Assembly: GCA_964398485.1 (NCBI GenBank)
Contig: CAYNMD010000003.1
Span: 1,334-65,333, forward strand
DNA: 64,000 nucleotides
Direction of reading: 5' to 3'
DNA from: an uncultured Bdellovibrionales bacterium
GTDB taxonomy: Bacteria > Patescibacteriota > Minisyncoccia > Moranbacterales > UBA1568
Of this stretch, positions 49,252 to 59,530 are shown piece by piece; position 1 is the first letter of the stretch, and the number at the start of each line of letters is the position of its first letter. The notes beneath the pieces were generated by a model, which worked only from the letters and a program-made list of their open reading frames with translations, had not been told where the DNA came from and searched no databases. The position numbers were made by a program, and so were the translations under genes.

Positions 49252-49327
49252 TTTCTGTTGATTTTTTTCTAGTATATCAGGCCACTCTCTAGTTGACAAA
49301 GCAAGAGGGGAGGCGTATCCTCGTCCT

Positions 49328-49585
49328 ATGTTCCGCAAGCTCCTTTTGGCTCTCATCCGGCTCTATCAAAAGACACTTTCTCTCAACCATGGTCTCATAG
49401 GCTATGTAGTGTCCGAACGTTTTTGCCGGTTTCATCCAACTTGCTCTGAGTACACCTACCAGGCTATAGAACGCTGTGGCGTATTCCGAGGTAGCTGGAT
49501 GGGATGCAAACGCATCCTCCGCTGCCACCCATGGTCCGAAGGCGGTTACGACCCAGTCGTTCCATCTGAGGAAAAAGATCGTTAA
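49328..49585 (+). CDS. yidD: membrane protein insertion efficiency factor YidD
   Basis: [19 protein letters not shown] signature of YidD. Confidence 0.7.
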
Positions 49586-49604
49586 GAGTCACTAGGAGTC
49601 AAAC

Positions 49605-49805
49605 TTGAACCAAGTGTTGGAAAGACATGTGGTGCCCCAGCGCTCTTGCGCTGGTCTCGTGTTTCCTGCAGAGCCGGTGCGCAAGGTGTTCTGCCACCGT
49701 GTCGAACGCCCGGTGAGTCCGAGCATGGCACACTCCTACTTCAAGTCGGGGGATCCGAAATGTGGGGGCTGCAGCCACGCCCAGCTGTGCCAGAACGACA
49801 ACTAG
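49605..49805 (+). CDS. small Cys-containing ORF A in GC-rich island (TTG start)
   Basis: AGGAG 6 nt upstream of TTG; 66 aa; CGGCSHAQLC cluster; about 60% GC. Confidence 0.2.
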   Translation: MNQVLERHVVPQRSCAGLVFPAEPVRKVFCHRVERPVSPSMAHSYFKSGDPKCGGCSHAQLCQNDN

Positions 49806-49818
49806 GGAGGGAATCCAG

Positions 49819-50091
49819 ATGATTCATGACCTTCATGGTATGCGTCGTCCGCAGGCCTATGGCCGGCGACGGCGCGAACATCAGCAGGGCTTCGCTCTGT
49901 TGACTCCCGCTGTCGAGGCTCACCTGACCGAAGCGGCCACCGATCAACATCCACCGGTGCTGCGCTTCGAGTGCGCTCGCAACCCACAAGGTGGTACGGT
50001 GACGGTCGCCACGGCCCGGCGTCTCTATGCCCGCGGAAGCGGTGAGTGCAGCGCCTGTCGTCACCAACGTGACTGCAGCAACATCACCTGA
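49819..50091 (+). CDS. small ORF B in GC-rich island
   Basis: GGGAGGG RBS 7 nt upstream of ATG; 91 aa; ECSACRHQRDC. Confidence 0.25.
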   Translation: MIHDLHGMRRPQAYGRRRREHQQGFALLTPAVEAHLTEAATDQHPPVLRFECARNPQGGTVTVATARRLYARGSGECSACRHQRDCSNIT

Positions 50092-50105
50092 AGAAGGAGT
50101 GCACC

Positions 50106-50321
50106 ATGGTCACGGTATCGTCACCACAAGGTCAACGTCTGCGGCAATCTGGCGCTGCGCCCATTTATGGCGTGGCCACCAACATCTACTGCCGGCGAGT
50201 CCAACGTGAACTCCCTGTCGGTCAGATTCGCCAGACGCTGTTCGAGCCCAAGAACTCGAGCTGCACCTTGTGCAAGGAAGGGAACGGCGGTCAGTTCCCT
50301 TGCCAGGCCAAGCAGACGTAG
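50106..50321 (+). CDS. small ORF C in GC-rich island
   Basis: GAAGGAG RBS upstream of ATG; 71 aa; C-x-x-C pairs. Confidence 0.25.
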   Translation: MVTVSSPQGQRLRQSGAAPIYGVATNIYCRRVQRELPVGQIRQTLFEPKNSSCTLCKEGNGGQFPCQAKQT

Positions 50322-50337
50322 GAGCGAGCACGGATCT

Positions 50338-50577
50338 ATGAGTATTCTCCGCAAGGACGGACGCTCTGGCTTCGAGGTCGTGTCCTGCATCAACCCAGGC
50401 TGCTCCCACACCTATCTCCTCGGTCAACCCTATGGGAGACACACCTCTCCCGAGGGCAAAGAGGGTGGTACCTGTTCCAAAGCTTGTGAAGACGCCTTTA
50501 CGGCTCTCATGAGAAGGAAGCAGGAGGAAGCGCTTCGTGCTGATAGCCGGTGGCAAGATCTCATGCCTGCAACCTGA
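50338..50577 (+). CDS. small ORF D in GC-rich island (zinc-ribbon-like)
   Basis: 79 aa; CINPGCSH...CSKAC four-Cys arrangement. Confidence 0.25.
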   Translation: MSILRKDGRSGFEVVSCINPGCSHTYLLGQPYGRHTSPEGKEGGTCSKACEDAFTALMRRKQEEALRADSRWQDLMPAT

Positions 50578-50649
50578 ACATCTTCCATCTTCGAGGGACT
50601 GTCACTCAACGAGTGGTGGTCCCTCGCAACATATCTGGAGGGAAAATTA

Positions 50650-50940
50650 GTGGACAGAATCATTTCGGCCGAGCTTCGGCTCACCCTGGTAGTGATCTTT
50701 ATGGGTGACCCGGACCCACTTCAGACGCTCGTGAGTAGCGACGTGCTTTTCTTGGCGAGAGAAGATCCCTTCGCTGAGACACTCTTCGATCAGGAGCGGT
50801 ATACATTGCCACAGCCGATGATTCGTTTGGTCGAGCTGCCAAGGCCGCATGGCTTCTCGTCCTATGGTCCGCCGCACTATCGGCGCTGGCCACTCAATCG
50901 TTCCACCCGTCGCCATCAACGCGGCAAACACTCGAGGTAA
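50650..50940 (+). CDS. small ORF E in GC-rich island (GTG start)
   Basis: GGAGGG upstream of GTG; 96 aa. Confidence 0.2.
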   Translation: MDRIISAELRLTLVVIFMGDPDPLQTLVSSDVLFLAREDPFAETLFDQERYTLPQPMIRLVELPRPHGFSSYGPPHYRRWPLNRSTRRHQRGKHSR

Positions 50941-50943
50941 ACC

Positions 50944-51150
50944 ATGCGAGAAAATAAGTTCGGCCCTTTCTTTCCGGGCACCCGTGTCCTGTGCCTTGCC
51001 GCCAGTCCACTTGGGGGCGGCGCTCGAATCCTTCTTTCGGAAGCAGCCAGGAGGTACAACCGCTACGAGGATGGATCAAGTAGCCCTTGCCTTTGCTGTG
51101 GTGACCCCAAGATGCCGTGCCGTGCCCTACGCCAAGCCATGAGGCAGTGA
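50944..51150 (+). CDS. small ORF F in GC-rich island
   Basis: 68 aa; PCLCCGDPKMPC cluster; 3 nt after ORF E stop. Confidence 0.2.
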   Translation: MRENKFGPFFPGTRVLCLAASPLGGGARILLSEAARRYNRYEDGSSSPCLCCGDPKMPCRALRQAMRQ

Positions 51151-51290
51151 GGGGGACACATATCCGCAATGTCCACTTGTGGATGCGTTTGTTTCATCAG
51201 AACACTGCCAAGCATCCCGAAGAGTAGGACAACCGGCCCAGGAGGGGAATACCTCACCTGGGCCGTAACATTTTTCTACAGACACTCTTA

Positions 51291-51317
51291 TTAGCACTCT
51301 ACTTGACAGAGTGCTAA
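51291..51317 (+). promoter_or_regulatory. CIRCE heat-shock operator (HrcA binding site)
   Basis: Perfect TTAGCACTC-N9-GAGTGCTAA inverted repeat immediately upstream of hrcA. Confidence 0.85.
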
Positions 51318-51331
51318 TGCATTTTTATAAT
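51303..51331 (+). promoter_or_regulatory. sigma-70-type promoter overlapping CIRCE, predicted leaderless hrcA transcript
   Basis: TTGACA (51303-51308, inside CIRCE spacer) -17 nt- TATAAT (51326-51331); predicted TSS about 7 nt later coincides with A of hrcA ATG at 51338. Confidence 0.45.
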
Positions 51332-51337
51332 AGGGAT

Positions 51338-52087
51338 ATGAATAGTCGTCAACGCGAAGTCCTCGCCGCTATCGTCGAACTCTATACCAAGACCGCCGAG
51401 CCCGTAGGTTCGGAGGCACTTTTGGAACGGCATCATTTCCCGGTGAGTTCTGCGACTCTCCGGAATGATATGCTCTCGCTCGAAGAAGCGGGGTACCTCT
51501 ATCAGCCACACACGAGTGCCGGCCGCATCCCGACCGATGAGGGGTACCGCTACTATGTCGAAGAAATGATGGGGGACAAACCGCTCAGTAAGCGTGACCA
51601 GCTCCATCTCCAAGAAGAATTCCTCAAACTCCAAGCCAAGCATACCCGGACCGTCCGCACCACGGCCAAACTTCTCTCGGCTCTCTCAGGTAATTTGGCT
51701 GTCTCGGGAGTCATTGGGAAAGATGAAGTCTATGATTTTGGGATGAAGTCACTTATCGAAAAACCAGAGTTTCAAGAAATGGATGAGCTGTGTCGCCTCG
51801 TCGAAACGATGGATACGCTCGATGAGCGCATCGACATGCTTCTCGAAAGTGTGGCTGATGGTGAGACCAAAATTTTTATCGGGAAAGAAAATCCGCTCGC
51901 GGGTGCCGAGAACTGTGCCATGGTGGTCTCGCCCTATCGTGATTCATCCGGCGAGCGCGGTATCCTCGCTATCATCGGTCCCAAACGTATGGAATACGCC
52001 AAGAACAAATCCCTCATTGAGCACATGAAAAAACTCCTCTCCTCATCGCTTATCGTTATCATCATTCCATGGAATCTCCTCAGCTAA
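51338..52087 (+). CDS. hrcA: heat-inducible transcription repressor HrcA (short form)
   Basis: N-terminal wHTH MNSRQREVLAAIVELYTKTAEPVGSEAL...SSATLRNDMLSLEEAGYL; CIRCE upstream; grpE-dnaK downstream. Confidence 0.8.
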   Translation: MNSRQREVLAAIVELYTKTAEPVGSEALLERHHFPVSSATLRNDMLSLEEAGYLYQPHTSAGRIPTDEGYRYYVEEMMGDKPLSKRDQLHLQEEFLKLQAKHTRTVRTTAKLLSALSGNLAVSGVIGKDEVYDFGMKSLIEKPEFQEMDELCRLVETMDTLDERIDMLLESVADGETKIFIGKENPLAGAENCAMVVSPYRDSSGERGILAIIGPKRMEYAKNKSLIEHMKKLLSSSLIVIIIPWNLLS

Positions 52088-55465: not shown

Positions 55466-55510
55466 TAAAAAATTCAAACGGCGACACCTAGGTGGGGTCG
55501 CCGCTTTGTT
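55466..55510 (-). terminator. repeat hairpin copy 1 (minus-strand terminator of 55533..56177)
   Basis: + strand AAAAAATTCAAACGGCGACACC-taggt-GGGGTCGCCG; on minus strand reads hairpin then TTTGAATTTTTT. Confidence 0.55.
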
Positions 55511-55532
55511 TGCTGGCTGTTGCCAGATTGGA

Positions 55533-56177: not shown

Positions 56178-56240
56178 AGATCGGTCACCTTTGCAAAGGA
56201 CTCGATACGGATGCAGCCGATCCTGGTTGGAGAAAATCTA

Positions 56241-56290
56241 CCAACGAGATATTAAAGCATTTTATCGGATAAAAATCAAGGGTGTATAAT
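56241..56290. repeat. promoter module copy 1 (bidirectional)
   Basis: CCAACGAGATATTAAAGCATTTTATCGGATAAAAATCAAGG shared with 57540..57582; minus-strand reading gives TTGATT-17-TTTAAT; plus strand has TGTATAAT extended -10 (56283-56290) before DUF3467 gene. Confidence 0.5.
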
Positions 56291-56825: not shown

Positions 56826-56870
56826 CTATAAATTCAAACGGCGACCTTGTGGTGGGGTCGCCGCTTTGTT
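56826..56870 (-). terminator. repeat hairpin copy 2 (minus-strand terminator of 56890..57486)
   Basis: ATAAATTCAAACGGCGACC-ttgtggt-GGGGTCGCCG, same element as copies 1 and 3. Confidence 0.55.
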
Positions 56871-56889
56871 TCCGGTGTTCCGGATGGGG

Positions 56890-57486: not shown

Positions 57487-57539
57487 GGGTTCTCCTGAAA
57501 GGTGCTGTTTCTCAGCTTTTTGAGCTGGCTGGTGAGCAA

Positions 57540-57598
57540 TTCACCAACAGAGTATTAAAGCATTTTATCGGATAAAAATCAATGGCTACTGTATAACT
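57540..57598. repeat. promoter module copy 2
   Basis: CCAACAGAGTATTAAAGCATTTTATCGGATAAAAATCAATGG (about 90% identical to copy 1), followed by TGTATAAC. Confidence 0.5.
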
Positions 57599-57619: not shown

Positions 57620-57660
57620 TAAAAAAATTCAAACGGCGACACCTGGGTAGGGTCGCCGTC
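57620..57660 (-). terminator. repeat hairpin copy 3 (minus-strand terminator of 57715..57954)
   Basis: AAAAAATTCAAACGGCGACACC-tgggt-AGGGTCGCCG. Confidence 0.55.
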
Positions 57661-57714
57661 GTAGTTGTGGCTGCTGCCAAATTTGAAGCCCTGACGCAAT
57701 GGTAGCGTGACCAT

Positions 57715-57954: not shown

Positions 57955-58447
57955 GCTGATCTCCCGTGATCAGATCTTCAACAAGGGACCCCTTGCTGAT
58001 TGCTGGTATATTTACAGGCTTTGAGCGTAAATGTCAACGAAACTTCCCTTTACAAGCGCTCTTTTTGTGCTAGGCTAGAGCCGGATCAAGGCGCCAAGGG
58101 GGCGTAGTACACTGCTCAGTCCGATCCGTTTTTTCGTTCGTTTCGTGTTTTTCTTTACGTGTACTTGAGCAAAGACCCGTCATCTCATGTGGCGGGGAGC
58201 GGGGCAGTAGCGCCCTGCATTCGTGTTTCCTTGTGGCGATCCCCGGCGGATCTGGCATCGACGCCTGTCGAGCCTGCCCTCCGACGGGGCGACGGGGACC
58301 CGGCTGTCCAATGAAAGCCACCCCCACGCAGCCCGGGTTCCGTGCGACCTGTTGCAGCTTTTGGCTGCGAGCCTGACCGACGGTGAGCCCCCTTGGCCAA
58401 CGTACGGAAATTTGGTTCTTTTCAACTCATTCTCTCGGGAGTATGCC
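57955..58447 (+). ncRNA. GC-rich structured non-coding region upstream of RT (candidate retron msr-msd or DRT-type ncRNA)
   Basis: About 490 nt without credible ORF (only overlapping GC-frame ORFs), multiple hairpins (CGGATC...GATCCG + T-run at 58095-58160; GCAGC-tttt-GCTGC at 58365-58380; GGGACCCGG...CCCGGGTTCC), ends at RT RBS. Confidence 0.35.
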
Positions 58448-59530
58448 ATGCTTGACATGATACTGCACCCGAGAACAATCGCGGTGCTCTGTGGTGGCTG
58501 GCCCACTATCGAATTTCACGAGAAGCTTGTCCGTGGGAAAAAACGGCTAATCGGCTCACCCAATCGAGCGATGAAAAGGCTCCACGAGCTCTTTGGCCAA
58601 TACCTCAAGCAAGCTATCAGCGCGACCAGAAGCGATGGCTATGGGGTGCGCAAGCTTCCTTCATCATTTGGTTGTGTACCGGGTTCGAACCCGATGAAAA
58701 ATGCCAACGAGCATGCCAAAGGTCAGTGGTGCTTCTATATCACTGACCTTTTTGACGCTTATGGCCACGTTTCGCTAGAGCGACTGGCACGTTTAGTGAC
58801 CTTCATCCTTCGTTATGAGGACTACGCTGATGAGGTTTCGCTTGGCTGGTTTGGTCTCGATGATCGCACAGAGTATCTGACACGTGACTCCGCGTATGCG
58901 CCTACGCTAAGTTTTCTGCGGGCTCACTTTGCTGGGCAATACGGAAGAGGATTGGCTATTGGGGGACCGCTATCGCCGTACCTCATGAACCTCTACTGCG
59001 AAGTGTTTGTTGACATGCCGCTCCGCAAACTCTGCGAACGACGTGAAATTACCTACACTCGCTATGTTGATGACCTGGTTTTTTCGGCCAATCAGTTCAT
59101 TGGAAGAGAGACAAGAAGGAGAATTCGGGCCATCATTGAGCGTGGCGGCTTTAGCGTCAATCACAAGAAGTCGTGGGTGAGACTCCACTCAATGGGTCAG
59201 GCGAGCGTGACCAAGTGGGGTATCGAACGCCAAGCTAACGATGGGCGGGTACTACGTATCACCTACCCTCAGCGCAAGCGGCGACTCCTCCACGGCATCA
59301 TCCACAGTTATCTCACCCAACAAATGGACTGGCCGGAAAAGGTAAGTGGCTGCGTAGCAGAGTTCCTCTACTACTACAAACAAGCGGAGCGGAGCGGGAT
59401 GCTCACTGCTACCGACCACAAGACAATGGAGCTGTGCCTACAGTTCAAGACTGAGTGGGACAAGTACGGTGGGCCCAAGTACCAATTGGGTCGACGCTAT
59501 CAGGCAAAACTTCGTGCGAGAAAGCGCTGA
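58448..59530 (+). CDS. reverse transcriptase (retron/DRT-type, RT domain only)
   Basis: RT motifs: ITDLFDAY (motif A), GLAIGGPLSPYLMNLY (QGxxxSP-type motif B'), YTRYVDDLVFS (YxDD motif C), VNHKKS (motif D/E); NANEH resembles retron NAxxH; 361 aa, no maturase/endonuclease domain; ATG at 58448 with GGGAG RBS. Confidence 0.8.
   Translation: MLDMILHPRTIAVLCGGWPTIEFHEKLVRGKKRLIGSPNRAMKRLHELFGQYLKQAISATRSDGYGVRKLPSSFGCVPGSNPMKNANEHAKGQWCFYITDLFDAYGHVSLERLARLVTFILRYEDYADEVSLGWFGLDDRTEYLTRDSAYAPTLSFLRAHFAGQYGRGLAIGGPLSPYLMNLYCEVFVDMPLRKLCERREITYTRYVDDLVFSANQFIGRETRRRIRAIIERGGFSVNHKKSWVRLHSMGQASVTKWGIERQANDGRVLRITYPQRKRRLLHGIIHSYLTQQMDWPEKVSGCVAEFLYYYKQAERSGMLTATDHKTMELCLQFKTEWDKYGGPKYQLGRRYQAKLRARKR

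Follow-up and report, generated by a model that had tools for sequence, protein, structure and literature searches.

A GC-rich island lying between yidD and the hrcA-grpE-dnaK heat-shock operon (positions 49586 to 51265) was analyzed in the window, by which we mean the whole 64,000-nt stretch of DNA from an uncultured bacterium of the Candidatus Moranbacteria, within the candidate phyla radiation (CPR). Six co-directional open reading frames (ORFs) of 66-96 aa, named o1 to o6, follow one another on its plus strand, and they very probably form a real coding operon of a new family of small proteins with four cysteines (Cys4). Four of them, o1, o2, o3 and o6, appear from their sequences to be diverged tandem paralogues of this undescribed family; at the C-terminus of these four, and of most ORFs in the related arrays, stands a domain of about 45 aa with the pattern C-x(20-31)-C-x2-C-x(5-9)-C. 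The four-cysteine family is confined to the yidD-hrcA locus in one group of uncultured Moranbacteria. The six ORFs, with the E-values obtained for the four paralogues using a hidden Markov model (HMM) of the family, are the following:

49605..49805, plus strand: o1, 66 aa, TTG start with AGGAG 7 nt upstream; four-cysteine family, ...VFCHRVERPVSPSMAHSYFKSGDPKCGGCSHAQLCQNDN; family HMM E = 7e-15.
49819..50091, plus strand: o2, 90 aa, read from an internal ATG; basic N-terminus GRRRREHQQGFALLTPAV plus four-cysteine domain (C52, C77, C80, C86); family HMM E = 3e-15.
50106..50321, plus strand: o3, 71 aa; the last loop of its four-cysteine domain is extended, CTLCKEGNGGQFPC, Cx2Cx9C; family HMM E = 1.4e-9.
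50338..50577, plus strand: o4, 79 aa; distinct Cys4 protein, C17-x4-C22 ... C45-x3-C49, with a charged helix-like tail; near-orphan.
50650..50940, plus strand: o5, 96 aa, GTG start, cysteine-free; second small family, with a conserved YGPPHYRRWP.
50944..51150, plus strand: o6, 68 aa; four-cysteine domain of the PxYPGTRVLC subfamily, putative ligands C17, C49, C52 and C59; family HMM E = 5e-10.

The initial annotation had described six tightly packed plus-strand ORFs at these starts, each behind a Shine-Dalgarno sequence, and this description was confirmed. The spacers measure 13, 14, 16, 72 and 3 nt, Shine-Dalgarno-like sequences (AGGAG, GGGAGGG, GAAGGAG or GGAGGG) lie upstream of the ORF starts, and the set includes one TTG start codon (o1) and one GTG start codon (o5). 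Cysteine clusters, also reported there for most of the ORFs, are present in five of the six. A search of the six frames of the 64 kb for C...CxxC(x4-9)C near an ORF C-terminus gave four occurrences, all of them in the island and on the plus strand, a clustering that is beyond chance. The isoelectric points (pI) range from 7.7 to 10.0 across the six proteins and from 8.8 to 9.7 for the four domain paralogues, and none of the six has a hydrophobic window resembling a membrane span.

The minus strand of the GC-rich stretch also holds ORFs of 91-148 aa, similar in length or longer, as is expected in GC-rich DNA, so that ORF length alone is no proof of coding, and the case for coding rests on conservation. 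All six ORFs are intact at 93.6-97.6% nucleotide identity in four further assemblies from other samples (JGI 3300045379, JGI 3300045396, and runs DRR685533 and SRR23702475), in which the same island recurs with the same junctions, ruling out the assembly chimera that the initial annotation had considered. The ratio of nonsynonymous to synonymous substitution (dN/dS) was lowest in the proposed frame for o1, o2, o3, o5 and o6 (loci used for comparison are numbered with L, and database proteins with P). Against L007 it was 0.35 in frame for o1 (0.60-1.38 in the other five frames) and 0.27 for o2 (0.49-1.51 in the other frames); against L083 it was 0.41 for o5 (1.2-1.3 out of frame) and 0.19 for o6 (dS 0.59, dN 0.11; 0.97-1.31 out of frame). 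The values for o3 against L083-L086 were 0.11-0.16, with only 3-4 substitutions per comparison and the second shifted frame at 0.36, and the substitutions in o4 were too few for a meaningful ratio. Matches obtained with tblastx to more distant relatives fell mostly in the ORF frames. Taken as conservation evidence, these results argue that the six ORFs are real protein-coding genes, with purifying selection in the proposed frames of o1, o2, o3, o5 and o6.

The contrary reading is that the stretch is non-coding, either a structured RNA or decaying DNA, with ORFs that stay open because GC-rich sequence has few stop codons. The minus-strand ORFs of equal length would fit it, as would the folding of the first 900 nt, which is better than that of shuffled sequences (z = -3.4, 20 shuffles only). 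It is extremely unlikely, however, in view of the frame dependence of dN/dS, the retention of the four cysteines at 25% protein identity, the HMM matches all being on one strand and the frame-specific tblastx matches that connect distant relatives. Rfam gave nothing at the gathering threshold over the whole window and nothing at E <= 10 over positions 49300-51400 except one chance snoRNA match; no tRNA or tmRNA genes were found. The decayed foreign fragment, offered as an alternative in the initial annotation, is refuted by the six ORFs being intact in four assemblies and under purifying selection. Two minus-strand ORFs (148 aa at 50110-50556 and 108 aa at 49741-50067) had no family or HMM match and dN/dS of 0.5-1.35, and were dismissed as a side effect of the high GC content.

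The weakest of the six is o1, which is skipped by gene callers in L083; it is intact in L083 and L084, and its orthologue in L007 is 86% identical. For annotation, this means that the GC-rich small ORFs here are genes and that some gene callers miss o1. In L083 a 44-aa minus-strand ORF (2539-2673) is called in place of o1, gene calls being inconsistent at the locus, and the database protein P0022 (162 aa) appears by inspection to be a shifted frame over yidD running into an o1 homologue. Orthologues of o2 are P0001-P0004, P0006, P0014 and P0015, with 51-99% identity; P0011, for which JGI and Logan assemblies have a gene call, matches o3 at all but one residue; and P0007, P0012, P0013 and P0018 are relatives of o6 within its subfamily. 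The relatives of o4 comprise only near-identical database matches (P0032, 95%) and an L081 homologue (74%), and it is intact in L083-L086. Homologues of o5 occur in the arrays of L004 (49%), L009 (38%), L082 (60-88%, in two frames) and L088/L089 (35%), and P0031 is its only database match (80%). No significant match was found in Pfam, NCBIfam, PHROGs or PADLOC for any of the six ORFs, o4 included, or for the two minus-strand ORFs.

The domain begins with a hydrophobic strand that carries the first cysteine, followed by a short strand or helix of the form h-x-h-x-x-A and then by C-x2-C-x5-C, usually with 2-6 residues more. An alignment of 30 sequences from 13 genomes had a mean column identity of 25%, with the four cysteines as the sole invariant columns, and they were again the sole invariant columns in a full-length alignment of 28 sequences. 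Among 45 distinct members, the spacing between the third and fourth cysteines is x5 in 31, x6 in 8 and x8-9 in 6, the spacing between the first and second is mostly x20-31, and the tail after the fourth cysteine is of 2-6 aa in 26. An AlphaFold2 (AF2) model of o2 based on the 28-sequence alignment gave predicted local distance difference test (pLDDT) values of 72-85 for the C-terminal domain and low confidence for the N-terminal half; its elements (strands 49-51 and 60-62, helices 63-69, 75-79 and 83-88) are arranged as beta-beta-alpha-alpha-alpha. Each paralogue consists of a variable basic N-terminal part, modeled by AF2 at low confidence, and the C-terminal four-cysteine domain. The extra cysteine in the CLCC of o6 is not conserved, a strain variant having PCNRCGDPKMPC where o6 has PCLCCGDPKMPC, and this residue is therefore not a ligand.

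A domain profile run in six frames against 1.31 Mb of Moranbacteria DNA gave 61 domain matches at E <= 0.01, all on the strand of hrcA. In the first profile run (about 23,600 segments), all but one (E = 0.088) of the 65 matches listed (E < 1) lay in the yidD-hrcA interval or in L001, on a contig without yidD. When the family HMM was iterated across all loci, 57 and then 59 segments were included, all on the plus strand, so that two members were added before convergence. The family is also rare in sequence databases: 13 family proteins were found in an index of 5.8 billion sequences, and an exhaustive search with HMMER through 1.84 billion cluster representatives brought 20 matches, two of which were long repeat proteins and were discarded as false positives. 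The remaining 18 are of 61-162 aa, nearly all below 130 aa, and have the same C-terminal motif. The retrievable genomic contexts of database members were always the yidD-hrcA locus, where the arrays contain as many as six small ORFs; L090 is a five-small-ORF array on a 2-kb contig without flanking genes. Scans of JGI metagenome contigs with the o2 subfamily and with P0005 gave no confirmed relatives.

Other small plus-strand ORFs occupy the yidD-hrcA gaps of distant Moranbacteria (L015, L017-L022, L027, L033, L036, L043, L044, L046 and L049, among others), and their C-termini read Cx2Cx2C, Cx3Cx3C or Cx2Cx3C after a distal cysteine. Cysteine-rich C-terminal tails were found in 25 of the 149 plus-strand gap ORFs, compared with 103 of 5173 background ORFs; with this enrichment in the same gap, the yidD-hrcA site seems to be a general home for small cysteine-tailed genes. 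Homology of these ORFs to the family is not demonstrable, since the iterated HMM adds two members and then converges, and the family HMM has no match there.

A scan for HrcA in GTDB species genomes yielded 80 loci, essentially all from Candidatus Moranbacteria/Moraniibacteriota. In 56 of the 80, yidD and hrcA lie on the same contig in the same order and orientation, at distances from about 92 nt to about 3.6 kb, and corA stands divergently beside yidD in nearly all. The gap is 450-1700 nt long in L002-L012 (HrcA 78-85% identical) and contains one to five small plus-strand ORFs, and L001 (HrcA 89%) also carries small ORFs; more distant Moranbacteria have ORF-free gaps of about 100 nt. The arrangement corA / yidD / small ORFs / CIRCE-hrcA-grpE-dnaK, CIRCE being the controlling inverted repeat of chaperone expression, recurs in L002-L012 and in the metagenome arrays L081, L082, L083, L087/L088 and L091, all with homologous small ORFs. 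The neighbors in the window, L081, L082, L083, L087 and L091 are RecR, DnaB, CysS, CorA and YidD on one side, and HrcA, GrpE, DnaK and DUF3467 on the other. The array carries one to four copies of the domain, and related arrays have only part of the subfamilies in common. With homologous arrays in the same syntenic slot, the locus appears to be vertically inherited within the clade with local turnover, its array copy number being variable.

The nucleotide divergence between the window and L083 is 0-3 per 100 nt in o1-o4, but the 3' half of o6 and its 3' untranslated region reach 30-40 per 100 nt. Such a divergence in the 3' half of o6, at a dN/dS of 0.19, points to an older allele imported by recombination, and suggests recombination between alleles inside the array. 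The array would expand, contract and reshuffle through tandem duplication and homologous recombination between strains. Divergence in o5 is 6-13 per 100 nt, and positions 51000-51260 form a strain mosaic in comparison with L083, L084 and L086. Only one spacer of the array is long, the 72 nt that separate o4 from o5; inspection by eye showed in it a stem-loop, GAGGGAC...GTCCCTC, at 50590-50625 (plus strand), near the point where inter-strain divergence begins to rise.

The GC content of the island is 58.6%, compared with 46.0% in the remainder of the 64 kb, and among all 1680-nt stretches of the window (mean 0.463, standard deviation 0.035) it is the maximum, about 3.5 standard deviations above the mean. 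The initial annotation had recognized this GC-rich island correctly but placed the jump exactly at the yidD stop and the return just ahead of CIRCE: the return is as described, with the drop at 51200-51400, shortly 5' of CIRCE, whereas GC is already rising across the 3' half of yidD, the 200-nt windows between 49300 and 49699 giving 0.505-0.56. A composition deviating from that of the host, also claimed there, is evident in the GC content at third codon positions (GC3), 0.65 in the island genes vs 0.45 in the host genes. The island proteins are rich in Arg (11.3% vs 5.6%), Pro (7.7% vs 4.5%) and Cys (4.7% vs 1.0%), with Lys and Ile scarce, so that amino-acid composition and synonymous sites both contribute to the GC excess.

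This composition (GC 0.586 vs 0.460, as well as the GC3 difference), together with a content that varies strongly between relatives and a mosaic strain divergence suggestive of recombination, is what would be expected of a recent foreign island of phage or plasmid early genes, or anti-defence genes, inserted beside a stress operon, as the initial annotation had proposed. Such an origin is very unlikely. The array occupies the same syntenic slot in L002-L012 and in five metagenome arrays, and is absent only from the distant Moranbacteria with gaps of about 100 nt; no integrase was found among the ORFs, and no tRNA and no flanking or direct repeats were found. The best PHROGs match had E = 0.075, PADLOC gave no match, blastn against INPHARED phages and PLSDB plasmids returned nothing, an IMG/VR scan found no relative, and Foldseek against BFVD gave no viral fold match (best E = 0.83). 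Moreover, the arrays of 6 of 11 relatives are at least 4 points GC-richer than their own contigs, so that the bias goes along with the gene family rather than marking a single transfer into this genome; exchange among Moranbacteria of differing GC content is possible. Neither recent horizontal acquisition nor a phage, plasmid or anti-defence character is thus supported. The comparison with related genomes suggested in the same annotation did recover homologues of the ORFs, in arrays at the same site.

The following features flank the array:

49293..49321, plus strand: promoter-like TTGACA-17-TATCCT, 5' of yidD, from a consensus scan.
49328..49585, plus strand: yidD, membrane protein insertion efficiency factor, 85 aa (TIGR00278, E = 8.5e-23), presumed first gene of the operon.
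51161..51185, plus strand: terminator-like hairpin followed by a T-rich tract, directly 3' of the o6 stop.
51234..51277, plus strand: strong hairpin with 14-bp arms, GGCCCAGGAGGGG...CCTCACCTGGGCC, followed by TAACATTTTTCT; presumed intrinsic terminator ahead of the hrcA promoter.
51291-51317, plus strand: CIRCE, TTAGCACTC-N9-GAGTGCTAA, read from the sequence; downstream border, outside the array.
51303-51331, plus strand: perfect TTGACA-17-TATAAT promoter of hrcA-grpE-dnaK, overlapping CIRCE, from the scan.

The consensus scan gave 49293..49321 as the sole sigma-70-like plus-strand site 5' of the array and none within 49586-51290, and this site is therefore the presumed promoter of a yidD-o1..o6 transcript. 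Spacers of 3-72 nt, promoter-like sites only before yidD and hrcA, and two terminator-like hairpins 3' of o6 are operon-like signs, from which we infer that o1-o6 are co-transcribed with yidD. The locus would be an operon specific to this lineage and encoding six proteins that are small, basic and soluble; its transcription would probably start at the yidD promoter and end at the 51234-51277 hairpin (folding z = -3.8 for the 3' region; sequence kept in L007, L004 and L001 by blastn), ahead of CIRCE and the hrcA promoter. The identity of hrcA is supported by TIGR00331 (E = 1.5e-64). Its product is short, about 249 aa at 51338-52087 (plus strand), and is of 247-256 aa in the called genes across the Moranbacteria loci; two stretches of it are matched by TIGR00331 (338 positions), the best-scoring one to model positions 2-122.

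About 7 kb 3' of the island, a 435-aa ORF at 58223-59530 (plus strand) contains a reverse-transcriptase (RT) domain (RVT_1, 1e-13). Upstream of it are three copies of a 42-nt hairpin-containing repeat (55470-55511, 56830-56871 and 57625-57666) and two of a 48-nt repeat (56235-56282 and 57538-57585); the repeat copies have only the hairpin in common, and in GC content (0.54-0.55) the region from 55.5 to 58.5 kb ranks second in the window. A link by which the RT would form a diversity-generating retroelement with the array as its target was considered and rejected, as comparison of the RT region with the island gave no repeat of the template/variable type, and only the 42-nt hairpin repeat recurs near the RT.

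One distal and three clustered cysteines are typical of cubane clusters, and structural zinc sites usually have two CxxC pairs. The four invariant cysteines of the family probably bind a single metal centre, and by analogy a [4Fe-4S] cluster may tentatively be assigned to it, being slightly likelier than Zn(II), itself a tentative candidate. The cluster loop of EndoIII/MutY is Cx6Cx2Cx5C, and AddB/Cas4 have a Cys...Cx2Cx5C 'iron staple'. CxnCx2Cx5C is the defining motif of the WhiB-like (Wbl) proteins, in which it ligates a [4Fe-4S] cluster (PMC7363131), the WhiB1 cysteines being C9, C37, C40 and C46 (PMC6282962), and the N-terminal CX13CX2CX5C of NUBP1 binds a [4Fe-4S] cluster as well (PMC10108433). 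NUBP1/Nbp35 thus resembles the present family in combining a Cx2Cx5C triad with one further cysteine. In NUBP1, EndoIII/MutY and AddB/Cas4, however, the motif is embedded in large enzymes (a P-loop NTPase, a glycosylase and a nuclease), whereas here it makes up almost the entire stand-alone 45-aa domain, and no sequence similarity to these proteins was found in PDB or Pfam.

Haloarchaeal CPxCG micro-proteins are small prokaryotic zinc-finger or zinc-ribbon proteins. They resemble the proteins described here in having fewer than 100 aa, four cysteines, a basic character and no enzymatic domain, and in being often lineage-specific and unannotated. A structural Zn(II) site, in small zinc-finger proteins that would bind nucleic acid or protein constitutively and with no redox or cluster switching, is a rival to be weighed, although a rather unlikely one. 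It would suit the four invariant cysteines in 45 aa, the pI of the paralogues and the variation in length of the last loop, which zinc sites tolerate well, and o4 has the two-plus-two cysteine layout. The only family matches at all were weak and non-significant ones to zinc-binding modules (zf-HC5HC2H, 0.009; Zn_ribbon_RPB9, 0.014; Zn_ribbon_DnaG, 0.1; all sub-threshold in Pfam and each for 1 of 30 members). Zinc-ribbon and zinc-finger profiles gave no significant match for the 30 members or for o4, nor was there a zinc-finger fold match, and the one-plus-three layout with Cx2Cx5C in o1, o2, o3 and o6 is the published [4Fe-4S] motif of Wbl and NUBP1 (PMC7363131, PMC10108433), unlike the usual pair of CxxC knuckles of a zinc ribbon. 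The label of small zinc-ribbon-like proteins given in the initial annotation was therefore right as to real cysteine proteins, which are probably metal-binding, and imprecise as to the type, with only o4 (Cx4C...Cx3C) being ribbon-like.

Under the [4Fe-4S] reading, the closest parallel is with the Wbl proteins, reported to our knowledge from Actinobacteria and their phages only (Pfam PF02467; WhiB1 structure, PDB 5OAY). Both groups consist of soluble proteins of small size (60-115 aa in the present family and about 80-140 aa in Wbl) with several paralogues per genome and four invariant cysteines in CxnCx2Cx5C, spaced x27/x2/x5 in WhiB1 and x24/x2/x5 in o2. The proteins of the array may act in a WhiB-type manner as small cluster-dependent binding partners, regulators or adaptors, in which the state of the cluster (redox, NO or iron status) would switch binding to RNA polymerase/sigma, nucleic acid or a chaperone system, with o4 (Cx4C...Cx3C) and the cysteine-free o5 ('PPHYRRWP') as accessory members of the array. 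The adjacency to hrcA-grpE-dnaK suggests a stress connection, position being its sole basis. A WhiB-like regulatory role is, by this analogy, a speculative proposal and rather doubtful.

Several observations weigh against the explanation just given. Four cysteines in a small domain can bind zinc equally well, and the last loop varies from x5 to x9, with the endings of the distant Moranbacteria being Cx2-3Cx2-3C; a variable loop fits a tolerant metal site and gives no specific assignment. The AF2 model is only moderate overall (mean pLDDT 69), and the GC3 excess of 0.65 vs 0.45 has no account in the operon model. A profile search of all PDB sequences gave no significant or relevant match, and Foldseek against PDB had a best E of 5.7 with no Wbl match, even though WhiB1, WhiB, WhiB3, WhiB4 and WhiB7 are included there, this being weak evidence as the model is of the apo form. 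The hhalign comparison with a WhiB1/WhiB/WhiB3 alignment reached a probability of 0.4% (E = 0.15) over a 15-column CxxCx5C segment only. The family proteins end right after the fourth cysteine, so that no member has either the G[V/I]WGG loop of Wbl or its basic C-terminal helix, and the predicted beta-beta-alpha-alpha-alpha topology differs from the all-helical Wbl fold.

The host, a CPR bacterium, is a further difference from Wbl, and the Pfam family Whib matched none of the 30 members at E <= 10. With Pfam, the PDB profile search, hhalign and Foldseek all negative, no homology to Wbl was detected; and since G[V/I]WGG is absent, the alignment spans only 15 residues and the predicted topology is not all-helical, the family was not filed under Wbl. 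It is at most a functional analogue of Wbl, not a member, and the resemblance is a lead on the cofactor and not on homology. Taken as a whole, the explanation combining an operon, a metal-cluster domain, WhiB-type regulation and array turnover is one that we favor by a modest degree of confidence.

Small ORFs in tandem, their cysteines gathered in the last 10-15 residues, with variable sequence between them and a copy number that differs among strains also recall the multi-precursor loci of RiPPs (peptides that the ribosome makes and that are modified after translation), in which the ORFs would be precursors of a cysteine-modified natural product, with a leader and a C-terminal cysteine-rich core. 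Fast sequence turnover is common to both. This alternative is very improbable: no modification enzyme (maturase), protease or exporter was found near any array that has flanking sequence (some 10 kb to either side), where the neighbors are always the set listed above from RecR to YidD and from HrcA to DnaK. In addition, the conserved unit includes a distal cysteine 20-31 residues upstream, within a predicted strand-helix domain (pLDDT 72-85), which resembles a folded domain and not a leader/core junction, and the variable part is the N-terminal 'leader', which differs among paralogues, the reverse of what most RiPP families show.

The genomes of CPR bacteria are tiny, with few recognizable regulators and many small genes that lack annotation. 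In this setting the locus represents a cleanly delimited, undescribed family, with one to four domain copies in arrays of up to six ORFs, at a fixed site beside the main heat-shock operon, and with a quick turnover from strain to strain; such a tandem arrangement at a fixed locus is unusual. It is conceivable, although improbable, that Moranbacteria independently evolved minimal WhiB-like, stand-alone [4Fe-4S] sensors of about 45 aa, built on CxnCx2Cx5C and kept in tandem between yidD and the HrcA/DnaK operon, in an array that diversifies fast and whose different paralogues would link redox, NO or iron status to the control of transcription or of chaperones. If zinc binding is true, the family of small proteins would still be specific to its lineage, and its expansion at one single hotspot would call for an explanation; if Fe-S binding is true, the domain would be among the smallest stand-alone cluster domains known, and a convergent counterpart of the WhiB-type sensors outside Actinobacteria.

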